This document shows positions 47,981 through 52,623 of a stretch of 64,000 nt of DNA, in pieces. The notes beneath the pieces are model-generated. The model made no database searches and was not told the DNA's origin. It saw nothing but the letters and a program-made list of their open reading frames with translations. The translations under genes and the position numbers were made by a program. Within the stretch, counting starts at the first letter, position 1. Each line of letters begins with the position of its first letter. The stretch comes from Spizellomyces punctatus DAOM BR117. Taxonomy: Eukaryota. Location of the stretch: NCBI GenBank assembly GCA_000182565.2, contig KQ257450.1; one strand, given 5' to 3'.

Positions 47981-49532
47981 ATGTCTAGAGCCCGTCCTTT
48001 GAACCCAAAGCCCATATTTGACGAGGAGCTAGTCCTTGAAGCATTCAGGAAAAACAAGATCAAAGAGTCCAATGCTGCTAAACTTTGGCGTTACCTTATA
48101 CAGCAACCCGAGAAAACTATAGACGAGATTCCCGACTTCCCAAAAGCGGCGAGAAAGCTAATTGATGATGAGTTTGTGATAACGACGTCAAAAGTAATAT
48201 CTCGCACCGATGCAAAGGATGGTAGTACGACAAAGCTACTGATAGAGCTACAGGACGGGCAGCGGGTGGAAAGTGTAATCATGCGTTATGGAGAGGTTGA
48301 ACTGGACTGTTTTCCAGAAGAGGAGGAGAGAAGGAAGAGGCGACGGAGGGAAGGGAATGGAGAAGATGGAGAGGAAATACTGGAGTTTCGATCGAATAAA
48401 CGAGCCACGTTGTGCGTTTCGTCTCAAGTAGGGTGTGCCATGGGGTGTACATTTTGTGCAACAGGAACGATGGGACTTCTTTCAAACTTGGCAGCTGGTG
48501 AGATTATCGAGCAGCTCTATCATGCGAACAAGATTGAGAAAATCCGAAATATAGGTTGGCGCAGTCATTTCTCTCCTTATGATGCTACAACTCATTTTAT
48601 TGACGAATTCTCCTGATTAAGTGTTCATGGGTATGGGAGAGCCACTCGACAATTATAATGCAGTCATGGCAGCCGTCCGAGCCATGGTTGATACTGGCCG
48701 GTTTGGCCTTGCCCCTTCAAGGATATCTGTCTCGACCGTAGGAGTCGTACCTAGAATCCATAGTCTGATCAAGGATGCTCCCAACATAGGCCTGGCGCTT
48801 TCCTTGCATGCACCAAACCAGACCCTTCGCCAGCAAATTGTTCCTACCGCCAAAGCTTGGCATGTGGATAGAATACTTTCCGCTTGTGACGCGTTCATAG
48901 ATCACCAGAACGGGTTGATCAAATCTACGAATCGGCGTCGCCATATTCTTGTTGAATATGTCTTAATCAGGGACGTCAATGACTCCCAAGAAACCGCCCA
49001 CGAATTAGGCCAACTGCTGAAGGGGCGACATGTTCTCTTGAACGTCATTCCATATAATCCAACATCAGTACCGCATGATTACAAGACTCCGAATAGAGAA
49101 GACAGTCGTCGCTTCGTGGAGACGGTGCGGGAATACGGCGTTCATACTCTCTTGCGTCAAACCCTAGGAGCAGATGCAGCCAGTGCTTGCGGTCAGCTAG
49201 TCATTGATAATGGCGGACAAAAGACCAGCGGACAGTGTGGGGACGATAAGGGCACAGGAAATGGAGTCGCCGATCTGGAAGATTTGCTACAGAATACTGG
49301 AGCTGGTAAAAATGGAGTAAAAGTATCCATCAAGTATCGCAAGAAAGCCCCGTCACTCGCCACTCCTACTGGTGTGGAACGAAATCCTCTGGACACACTC
49401 CAATCTGGCACGGCAGCTCTTACCAAGAGAAGGTCACGGCTGAAGGTGGCAACATTGTGTGCTTTATGTATATTATTTGCTGTGGTGCTGGGTAGGGTAG
49501 TCCTAAGATCTCTGGGTTTGGCAACTGTATAG
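47981..49532 (+). CDS. RlmN/Cfr-family radical SAM RNA methyltransferase with C-terminal hydrophobic tail; 2 exons
   Basis: [37 protein letters not shown] (CxxxCxxC), [31 protein letters not shown]. Confidence 0.9.
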
Positions 49533-49743
49533 CATAGAAGATATATTTGCATTATTTCATTTGTAACATAGGCGTGGATAATGAGGGGATGTCTTCTGGA
49601 AAGGAGAATGGGATTTGGAATTACAGGAAGATTTACATAGTGCGGAGCCGATGGGTATTGGCACTAGTACATAGATTCCAACCAATTTAATCATAATTTT
49701 ACTCGATTTAGACTCATGAACTGTGGTTTGATCCAAAAAATCC

Positions 49744-49750
49744 TATATAA
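49744..49750 (+). promoter_or_regulatory. Putative TATA box for the Fanzor ORF
   Basis: TATATAA ~75 bp upstream of the ATG at 49822, inside the element. Confidence 0.4.
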
Positions 49751-49821
49751 GTCATCGTGCCCATTTTCCCAGGCTTTCGTCTTTTTCAGATATCATCAAT
49801 GCCACAGATACAGATATCATC

Positions 49822-51688
49822 ATGCCGCCAAAGAAAAAGCAAAAACTCGAAAAACTCGACAAACCCACCTTACATACCTGCAACAAAACTTCCTTTGCAA
49901 AAGCTTTCCTGCCAAACTACCACCAACGGCTTCTAGATTACATCGCCATCATCCATCAACTTGCCGACCACGCTTCCCACGCTCTCAAATTCTACATCCT
50001 ATCTGCACCATCCTTCACCGTGAACGAGGAGACCATCGAAGCGATTCTCTATCTTCTCAACAAGGGGGAGGCTTGGCATCCAAGAAAGGAAGCAAAGAAG
50101 GCATGGCAGGATTGTTTGCTGCCATATGTTCAACAGTACTGCCAAATCGTCGGCTTCGTTCACCCAAATCTACGAGGCGAGCAGCAATCAGTCAATTACC
50201 TGACAGCGAGTATGATGATGAACCTAAAAGTCAACGTTCAAGAGCATTTCATGCAGATGCTCCTTCAGTATATCAATCTGCAGCTCGATGTGAAGAGACA
50301 GAAGCAACTGCCACTGAAAAGCGATGCACAGAAAGCTTTCTTTACTCGACTATGCTATTTGAAGTCAGTTTTCCTTTTCGAAACCATGCCAGAATCGCTG
50401 GATGACTTGAGCATTCTTGAAAATGAGATTTTTAGAAGAGATCTGGACACTTAACCTGCCATTTCCTGATCAAGACAAGCCACTTGCCTACCTCATTGCC
50501 ATTGACGCGATGTCCTTCTTGCCTGCTTACTGTCGGTTGTCAAGCCTATATGAAAAGCATGGATTTCAACGGTTCAGTGCCATCCCACTTCGCTGCTCCC
50601 TCATCCAAAGCCATATTCGCATCGACACGGTCATTCTCTACGCCCACATCCTCTGCATCACCCGCCAAGGAGCAGAAGCTGTAGAGAAGGTCGATTTATG
50701 GTTGCGTGTCTGTAATCTGCGGAACAAGGCTTTTAGATCTCGCCGCGGTATGCAGTTTGAAGGCTCGATCACAACGGATGGAACCTCAGTGTCTGTATAC
50801 CTAAAGCACCCAGAAGCAGACAAGTATGGAAAGCGCGGAGCGAGAAAGTCAGCAAAGAGTTTAGAGGACGAAGTTAAAGTGCAATACATGGAGAAAAACT
50901 TACCTGCTTGTCGAGCAGCAGAGAATGTCGTTGTTATCGACCCAAACAAGCGCAATATTCTCTACTGCCAAGACAACAGTGGTGTGACATTTCGCTACAC
51001 CGCCAACCAGCGAGCCATGGAGACTGGAAGCCATCGATTTGCAAAAGAACGGCAGCAGATGAAGAAGGAAGCGGGAATTGACCTCATAGAATCATATATC
51101 CCTAGTCACAAGACAATGAACCTCATGGACTTCATGCGCTATCTCCTCGTTTGCCATCATGCAGATTCGGATTGTCGCAAGGAATTCTACTCCCACCCTG
51201 CCCACACGCGATGGAAATGGCACTCCTTCATCAATCAGCAGCAAAGTGAATCAAACCTCATATCCAACTTGTGCAACAAATACGGTGAAAACTTTACCAT
51301 TGTGATGGGTGATTGGAGCGATGCCGGTCGAACTGCAAGATTTCAGACCTCATCAAAGACAAAAGGTTGGCGCACCCTCTTTAAGCGCAACAGGATCAAC
51401 TGCTTCCTTCTTGACGAGTATAAAACCTCATCTGTCTGCCCTCACTGTTCCTCTGGCATTGAAAAAGGCTTCAAAACACGACCTCATTCAAGACCTTGGC
51501 GCCGTCGCGAAGGCAAGATTGAAAAAGTCCATGGATTGCTGGGTTGTACCAACCCTAACTGTCAGCAAGCCTGGACGATGCGCTACTGGAATCGAGATAC
51601 ACTGAGCACCTGCAACATGCTGATGATCGTGCAATCAATGTTGGATGGACATGGTAGATCAGAAGTGTTCAGCCTGTTCCAGCCGTAG
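49822..51688 (+). pseudogene. Fz1: Fanzor1 (eukaryotic TnpB-like RNA-guided RuvC endonuclease, SpuFz1-like), split by a +1 frameshift at ~50429-50433
   Basis: NLS-like MPPKKKQK; ITTDGTSVSV; RuvC-I VVIDPN (D at 50939); IVMGDWS; RuvC-II LLDEYKTSSVCPHC (E at 51416); CTNPNC zinc finger; RuvC-III WNRD (D at 51596); intronless; joins to ~620 aa if one T is removed. Confidence 0.93.
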
Positions 51689-51702
51689 CGTAGCGTAGAT
51701 TA

Positions 51703-51792
51703 GTTTTTCCGAACCGGTTGTCGCCGGTTTATTCCCTGGTGCGGGTGCTAGTGCCAATACCCATTGGCTCCGCACTATTTTGAGTTACCCTT
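51703..51792 (+). ncRNA. Predicted Fanzor omegaRNA: ~75-nt scaffold (51703-51777) plus ~15-nt flank-derived guide
   Basis: Follows the ORF and overlaps the right TIR; hairpins aaccgg/ccggtt (51712-51729) and tggtgcgg..gctagtg/cattggc.ccgcacta; layout matches the SpuFz1 omegaRNA as I recall it. Confidence 0.8.
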
Positions 51793-51918
51793 TTGGATTC
51801 ACCGTACTTCATATGCTTTGGAGGCCAACTTTGGTGTCACGTGAATATACAAGCTCCGTATGTTGTTTGTTGCGACAATTTGGTAGATTCATAACTCATC
51901 GTTAGATCGACACCAATA

Positions 51919-52623
51919 ATGGAACCTATAAACAGCGTGGAGTCAGTAGACGATCCCTACCTGTTATACCCCGAACTTGCCATCGCCACACCTCCAACCT
52001 CACGCATTAGACGGCTTGTCGCTTACGACTGGGCAAACGGCTTTGTTAGCCCATTCAGAGAAACCCCAACCGACGTATGCACGTCATTGGCAGAATACCT
52101 CCGCCTTCACTCTCTAGTTTCTGCTAGAGATAGCTTGTTGGACTTGGGATGCGGGAATGGAGCTTTGCTTTTTGGTGTGGTGAAAGCTCTTGGCCCTGTG
52201 GCGACCTCTTGTTCCCTGGTGGGTCTGGATCTCGACCTAACGTTGGTTGAGGAAGCTGCCAAAACAGCGACAGGGGATGCGATTATACGCAATCAACGAG
52301 TTCAGTTGTTTGTGGGAGATATTGTGAGCCGCAATCCTGTTTCTCAGGTGCATCCACGTTTGAGATCAAACATCGATGGCATCTCCATGGTGTCGACAAC
52401 AACCACTGTTGATACCCTCCTAGATGATGCTTCAGTAATACTGCTATATCTATTACCAGAAGCAATAGGAAAGCTTTTGCCGAGTCTTCGTCATCAAATC
52501 CATCTTGGCAAGTTGGTTGTAAGCATTAAATGGCCATTAACATCTCCGGATTTGGATCTCTCCGAGTTCCTCTGCACACATCAGGATGGATATCTGGTTT
52601 ACAGACGTAGCATTAAGGCTTAA
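51919..52623 (+). CDS. Class I SAM-dependent methyltransferase (FAM173-like), intronless
   Basis: SPFRETP, LLDLGCGNG (motif I), VGLDLD, VILLYLLP, VVSIKWPL. Confidence 0.75.
   Translation: MEPINSVESVDDPYLLYPELAIATPPTSRIRRLVAYDWANGFVSPFRETPTDVCTSLAEYLRLHSLVSARDSLLDLGCGNGALLFGVVKALGPVATSCSLVGLDLDLTLVEEAAKTATGDAIIRNQRVQLFVGDIVSRNPVSQVHPRLRSNIDGISMVSTTTTVDTLLDDASVILLYLLPEAIGKLLPSLRHQIHLGKLVVSIKWPLTSPDLDLSEFLCTHQDGYLVYRRSIKA

Follow-up and report, generated by a model that had tools for sequence, protein, structure and literature searches.

Flanks of a frameshifted Spu-1 copy in Spizellomyces punctatus place the Fanzor1 TAM and a predicted guide target on either side of the element

One Spu-1 (SPu-1) element of the soil chytrid Spizellomyces punctatus, the organism of the first Fanzor description, is inserted such that the CATA of the SpuFz1 TAM adjoins its left end, and the predicted guide of its omega-RNA runs outward from its right end. 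The element is 2136 bp long and lies on the + strand at 49640-51775 of the window, i.e., the whole 64-kb stretch of DNA that was analysed. If the TA found on either side of it is a target-site duplication (TSD), the unoccupied site would read CATA followed directly by the guide match, and would be a target for SpuFz1. The reading that explains the whole best, and which we consider probable, is that of a Spu-1 copy with the published geometry of its family, for which the empty site is a target and homing is the likeliest role. The observation on which this is built, made in a first-pass annotation, is real and had been correctly read, and it brings nothing new in principle: the element and its TAM have been published, as have the conservation of the CA, the putative duplication of the TA and the logic of a TSD within the TAM. 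What the locus does offer is a clean and fully specified test substrate, with one empty-site sequence for which cleavage is predicted and two occupied junctions predicted to remain uncut, as well as an illustration of the question of the role of Fanzor in eukaryotes.

The left flank ends in GATTTACATA and the element starts at 49640 with GTGCGGAGCC, the adjoining CATA (49636-49639, +) being made up of a CA (49636-49637) and the left TA (49638-49639). On the other side the element ends at 51775 with GGCTCCGCAC, its outermost bases being CCGCAC (51770-51775), and these are followed by the right TA (51776-51777) and then by a flank that starts at 51778 with TTTTGAGTTACCCTT (51778-51792). The TA is the sole direct repeat at both junctions, and the first-pass annotation, which had put CATA directly left of the element and TA on both sides of it, was accurate to the base. 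The ends themselves are 28-nt terminal inverted repeats (TIRs), the left arm at 49640-49667 (+; an exact match) and the right arm at 51748-51775 (−), which differs from the left by a single mismatch (27/28). Exactly these two matches to the repeat were present in the window, a number reached in 0 of 100 shuffles, and no second copy or ghost element was found in the 64 kb, the element's own two arms being all that matched. Counting the flanks, the inverted repeat is 34 nt long with 94% identity (49637-49670 and 51745-51778), because the flanks read A-TA and TA-T. The inferred empty site would as a result contain the palindrome ATAT, which could come from a target preference for AT-rich palindromes or have arisen by chance (1 in 4). 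In its size and repeats the element resembles the Spu-1 family, whose members are ~2.1 kb long with inverted repeats of 30-33 nt, and it has the flanks of that family as well, i.e., a TA on each side and a CA upstream of the left repeat.

The TIRs, the family description and the gene that the element carries together mark it as a non-autonomous TIR element of the Spu-1 type. The gene is a Fanzor1 in two pieces, both of which match the solved Spizellomyces punctatus Fanzor1 (PDB 8gkh). The N-terminal piece (49822-50454, +, 210 aa) aligns to residues 2-205 with an E-value of 1.4e-106 and ends at a premature stop after a frameshift, and the C-terminal piece (50417-51688, +, 423 aa), in the +1 frame, contains the RuvC catalytic residues and matches with an E-value of 1.5e-233, values that indicate close kinship to a solved, active Fanzor1. 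The pieces abut at SpuFz1 residues ~205-215, and the ORF list and the 8gkh alignments place the shift at a run of five T residues (50429-50433, +). The intact single ORF of ~633-638 aa typical of Spu-1 is thus replaced here by 210 and 423 aa in different frames. At the T5 run none of 30 reads of a ChIP DNA run (X22) had a base missing, and one X2 contig (depth 7.9, with two other differences) had one T fewer and is probably a sister copy.

Despite its division the gene has kept all ten of the residues on the list taken from the published SpuFz1 structure (10/10 identical), namely the TAM contacts R96, Q129, Q130 and N133 in the N-terminal piece and R291 and Y345 in the C-terminal piece, and the catalytic D383, N385, E541 and D606, also in the C-terminal piece. 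The protein is ~81% identical to SPPG_07727 (638 aa), whose length, together with the ten residues, fits the numbering of the solved protein, and among the many named paralogues retrieved by the database search identity was as high as 85%. The search also retrieved the protein of the window itself, on a contig of 2,242,449 bp on which other proteins are named as those of S. punctatus DAOM BR117. Since the Pfam search produced no family for either piece, the identification relies on the PDB and homologue searches; the homologues carry the precomputed family PF26935. Judged from its sequence, with two abutting ORF pieces, their 8gkh matches and the paralogues, the element at 49640-51775 is a frameshifted copy of Spu-1 and its gene a paralogue of SpuFz1, the nuclease for which RNA-guided, TAM-dependent cleavage of dsDNA has been demonstrated (Saito et al. 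2023, PMC10432273), in a family in which the same paper describes partial copies. Two other features of the locus were noted. A 12-nt direct repeat, CAGATATCATCA, occurs twice within 49787-49822, 24 nt apart, the second copy ending on the A of the Fanzor ATG. The neighbouring genes gave a weak radical-SAM match upstream of the element and weak methyltransferase matches downstream of it.

The scaffold of the Spu-1 omega-RNA is 75 nt long and its variable guide 14-15 nt (Saito et al. 2023, PMC10432273), so the position of the guide depends on where the scaffold ends. That position was determined with a register test, in which the scaffold nucleotides named in the published structure were compared with the window and eight other registers were tried. 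With scaffold nt 75 on 51777, the A of the right TA, nine of nine named nucleotides from A29 to A75 matched, and in the eight other registers at most two of the nine named 3'-half nucleotides did so. In the 5' part of the scaffold eight of nine named nucleotides matched at an offset of +1, within stem-loop 1, which suggests that Spu-1 copies differ there by a small indel. By this register and the fold described below, the predicted scaffold, which comprises stem-loop 1, a linker and stem 2, occupies 51703-51777 (+), and the guide therefore begins at 51778, i.e., at nt 76. A guide start right after the right TA was what the first-pass annotation had predicted, and the register bore this out. 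The predicted 15-nt guide, TTTTGAGTTACCCTT (51778-51792, +), is read outward into the right flank and occurs only once in the 64-kb window.

Folding of the RNA from 51703-51792 gave two hairpins with an energy of −33.3 kcal/mol (z −3.84), and 0 of 200 shuffles were as stable; together with the 9/9 register ending at 51777, this two-hairpin fold is what is expected of a Spu-1 scaffold. In this fold stem 2, which is built from the right TIR and includes the right TA, has the terminal UA paired at its base. By sequence, register and the published TSD, the right TA would thus be both the putative 3' copy of the duplication and U74 and A75 of the scaffold, an arrangement with precedents: a 2026 review (PMC13565253) assigns the 5' TSD to the TAM and places the 3' TSD inside the scaffold in Fanzor structures, and a duplication within the scaffold is also stated for insect-virus Fanzor1 (Yoon et al. 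2023, 10.1101/2023.08.09.552727). A search of Rfam over 49500-52000 gave no matches at E-values up to 1. The outer bases of the right TIR recur, inverted and subterminal, as GGTGCGGG at 51737-51744; in the predicted RNA the TIR pairs with this copy to form stem 2, which gives the right end of the element a nested hairpin that is absent from the left end.

RNA reads were abundant over the scaffold: sense depth was ~0-1 along most of the Fanzor ORF, rose to 3.9 and then 18.9 in the pair of bins just upstream of 51623, reached 1364 and 1196 in the pair spanning 51623-51824, and was 0 beyond 51825. Since 2184 of 2271 reads at 51704 had other letters and 3974 reads diverged after 51741, most of the scaffold reads derive from sister or ghost loci and are not evidence of this copy's expression. 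Within 51700-51741 thousands of reads share just ~40 nt with this copy, their loose ends starting at 51700-51711, and the 3974 reads that diverge after 51741 continue with a common different sequence. These short shared stretches fit ghost-type omega-RNAs with a different stem 2, described by Saito et al. (2023, PMC10432273) as the most abundant species. At the other end of the element, RNA run X21 had reads antisense to the Fanzor ORF at a depth of 46-93 over 49704-50006 (16 in the next bin, to 50107), versus 0-15 in sense; in the first bin (49603-49703) sense exceeded antisense (152 and 72). The upstream + strand gene is read in sense. Most of these 5' antisense reads had sister-copy letters (e.g., 138/150 at 49723), indicating a signal that is family-wide and not that of this copy. 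In the ChIP DNA run X22, depth was ~1-4 per strand at 49300-49602 versus 46-91 per strand at 51825-52300, a strong asymmetry across the insertion, for which the immunoprecipitated chromatin mark may be responsible.

Saito et al. (2023, PMC10432273) determined the TAM of SpuFz1 with an 8N library to be 5'-CATA, found that any single mutation in it abolishes cleavage, and located the cuts after bases 16/17 and 20/21. The first-pass annotation had given the TAM as CATA, in agreement with the published measurement. The same study found a CA to be conserved upstream of the 5' repeat across Fanzor loci and 134 ghost loci. In the window CA precedes 471 of 6619 TA sites, counted on both strands (7.1%), and a CA at one locus alone is weak evidence; its meaning comes from the published conservation and from the independently measured TAM. 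In the occupied allele, the right junction presents ACTA before the guide match and should escape cutting, since ACTA has two mismatches to the TAM and one is enough to abolish cleavage, and the left junction has CATA with no guide match. The occupied allele is predicted on both counts not to be a target, as the first-pass annotation had held.

Given a guide that starts at 51778 and a CATA on the left, an empty site with a single TA would be CATA plus guide match, a legitimate SpuFz1 target, conditional on the TA being a duplication. In the mechanism proposed, the TAM of the nuclease would be made up of the CA and the left TA; the scaffold would end with the right TA, and the guide would be the 15 bases downstream of it. 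The geometry, with the TAM on the left and a guide that matches the right flank, is then that of restorative homing, provided that the empty site has a single TA. An element-free copy of the locus would be cut, as we infer to happen in vivo, and then be repaired from an occupied copy, by analogy with the TnpB of IS605, and the nuclease for the frameshifted copy at 49640-51775 would be supplied in trans by intact paralogues. The earlier interpretation was supported in part: the TAM, the guide start, the uncut occupied junction and the kept TAM-contact and catalytic residues all stood, but the nuclease gene of this copy is frameshifted. The portion of the self-target claim that concerned excised alleles holds only with scarless excision. 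Cut-and-paste DDE transposons usually excise with a break or a footprint, not scarlessly, and with a footprint that kept the last bases of the element, the guide match would once more be preceded by ACTA-like bases. For gene-drive-like spread, in turn, an occupied and an empty copy must share a nucleus, i.e., on a sister chromatid or in a heterozygote.

That homing is the true function of the Spu-1 Fanzor is a proposition by analogy, and one that we regard as evenly poised. Restorative homing has experimental support for TnpB and IscB only, according to the 2026 review (PMC13565253), and our literature search found no paper showing homing by any Fanzor. It may be that the geometry is real and serves something else, the CA-TA representing the target preference of an unknown trans-acting transposase, e.g., for an AT-rich palindrome, and the Fanzor either cutting other sites by means of the large repertoire of ghost guides or having no current role. 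This we consider rather unlikely, with points to be weighed on both sides. Fanzor has no established biological role according to Saito et al. (2023, PMC10432273), who found no transposase inside the Spu-1 repeats and suggest that Fanzor may act on other transposons in trans. The flanks lengthen the inverted repeat by one base on each side, A-TA...TA-T, such that the empty site would read A-TA-T, and neither excision nor an empty allele was seen in four sequencing runs. Moreover, DDE excision leaves a double-strand break (2026 review, PMC13565253), so a nuclease adds little to what excision already does. A symmetric element with TIRs and TAs, however, gives no obvious reason for a CA on one side only, and that one-sided CA completes exactly the TAM that was measured independently in a random library.

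The homing reading depends on the TA being a duplication, for which the literature gives two accounts. Bao and Jurka (2013, PMC3627910) describe "putative TA TSDs" for Spu-1, and Saito et al. (2023, PMC10432273) count the TA within a repeat of 30 nt. Were the TA part of the element, with no duplication, the empty site would read ...TTTACA followed by TTTTGAG..., a site that lacks CATA and is no target, and the self-target logic would therefore fail. The 30-nt repeats and the word "putative" both speak for this possibility, but the TAM would then be matched at none of the alleles of the locus: if the TA leaves with the element, the guide match in the empty site is preceded by TACA, and nothing explains why the CA is conserved. 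The measured TAM is exactly CA plus TA, and the review (PMC13565253) counts the 5' TSD in the TAM. We therefore regard a TA belonging to the element as improbable and, because the random-library TAM equals the conserved CA plus TA, infer that the TA is very probably a target-site duplication.

The sequencing runs were searched for a joint from 49639 to the right flank, which would represent an empty allele or an excision, and none was found in the four runs (38- and 60-nt reads as well as contigs), a weak piece of evidence because reads of these lengths are short and contigs drop rare variants. Among the joints listed for the four runs there were two, both internal to the element, at 51196-51300. 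By the 31-letter rule the right junction alone was bridged by a contig (X1, 51735-52300, 0 differences), the contigs at the left junction extending just 24 letters into the element. In all four of the sister-copy junction contigs among those listed (there were 218 further loose ends) the TA adjoins GTGCGG. Two of these have CATA, one TATA and one TCTA, a tiny sample set against the 218 further loose ends, and left and right ends are indistinguishable in these contigs, as they enter only the near-identical arms; the 2:2 split for CATA would be expected from mixed left and right ends.

Chance as the origin of the CATA at the junction, which a frequency of 7.1% for CA before TA and the visibility of a single locus would allow, is very improbable and was rejected on the conservation of the CA across the Fanzor and 134 ghost loci (Saito et al. 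2023, PMC10432273). Under homing from a duplicated TA, the asymmetry itself may have a meaning: if only insertions behind a CA can be restored by the Fanzor, the flanks of Spu-1 and ghost elements would record homing, and the one-sided CA on a symmetric, TA-flanked TIR element for which the genome has no known matching transposase would be a survivorship mark of RNA-guided homing in a eukaryote. We offer this tentatively, as possible and somewhat on the unlikely side. If it were true, the present locus, with its broken nuclease gene and its intact TAM, scaffold and guide, would be a passenger that depends, as the ghost loci do, on nuclease supplied in trans, and would lend itself naturally to a first direct test of homing.

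A transposase was sought in the element, and relatives of the element in other collections. The ORF list of the element contains nothing longer than 105 aa beyond the two Fanzor pieces and an overlapping frame of 229 aa, and the window contains no further match to the TIR; by this list and the TIR search, the DDE transposase of a Tc1/mariner-IS630-like transposon was seen neither in cis nor in an autonomous partner with matching TIRs. A metagenome scan with the single Fanzor protein gave 30 pattern matches, none of which was confirmed, and a scan with an alignment of nine sequences gave seven loci at 29-46% identity, with no convincing TIRs around the gene at any of the seven. The best candidate TIR pair among them (locus L005) was dropped, its right arm lying in apparent coding sequence. 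Scans for the TIR pattern in two viral and prokaryotic collections (viral_contigs and genome_contigs) returned 0 matches in each.

Of the systems described, the closest is that of the Spu-1 loci of S. punctatus DAOM BR117 themselves (PMC3627910; PMC10432273), which are reported from the same organism and have in common with the window copy a length of ~2.1 kb, TIRs, flanking TAs and a CA on the left, as well as a SpuFz1-type protein and a 75-nt scaffold that ends at the right TA. The window copy differs in that its ORF is split by the frameshift, its two TIR arms differ by one base, and its stem-loop 1 is offset by one base from the published scaffold numbering (8/9 at +1). Further afield, the Fanzor elements of an insect virus and of molluscs (Yoon et al. 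2023, 10.1101/2023.08.09.552727) are likewise described as non-autonomous TIR elements with the duplication and the TIR in a stem of the scaffold, but they have a 4-nt TTAN duplication versus the 2-nt TA of Spu-1, as well as other hosts and another TAM. The likeness extends to the bacterial system from which the homing analogy is drawn, i.e., the TnpB-omegaRNA of IS200/IS605 elements (10.1101/2023.03.14.532601; PMC13565253), in which, as here, the TAM lies directly against the left end of the element, with the guide running into the right flank. In both IS605 and Spu-1 the element-free site joins the TAM to the target and the occupied site parts them. IS605, as the review describes it (PMC13565253), is without TIRs or duplications and is excised scarlessly by an HUH transposase, whereas Spu-1, for which no transposase is known from these sources, has TIRs and flanking TAs, and in its case half of the TAM would be the duplication itself.
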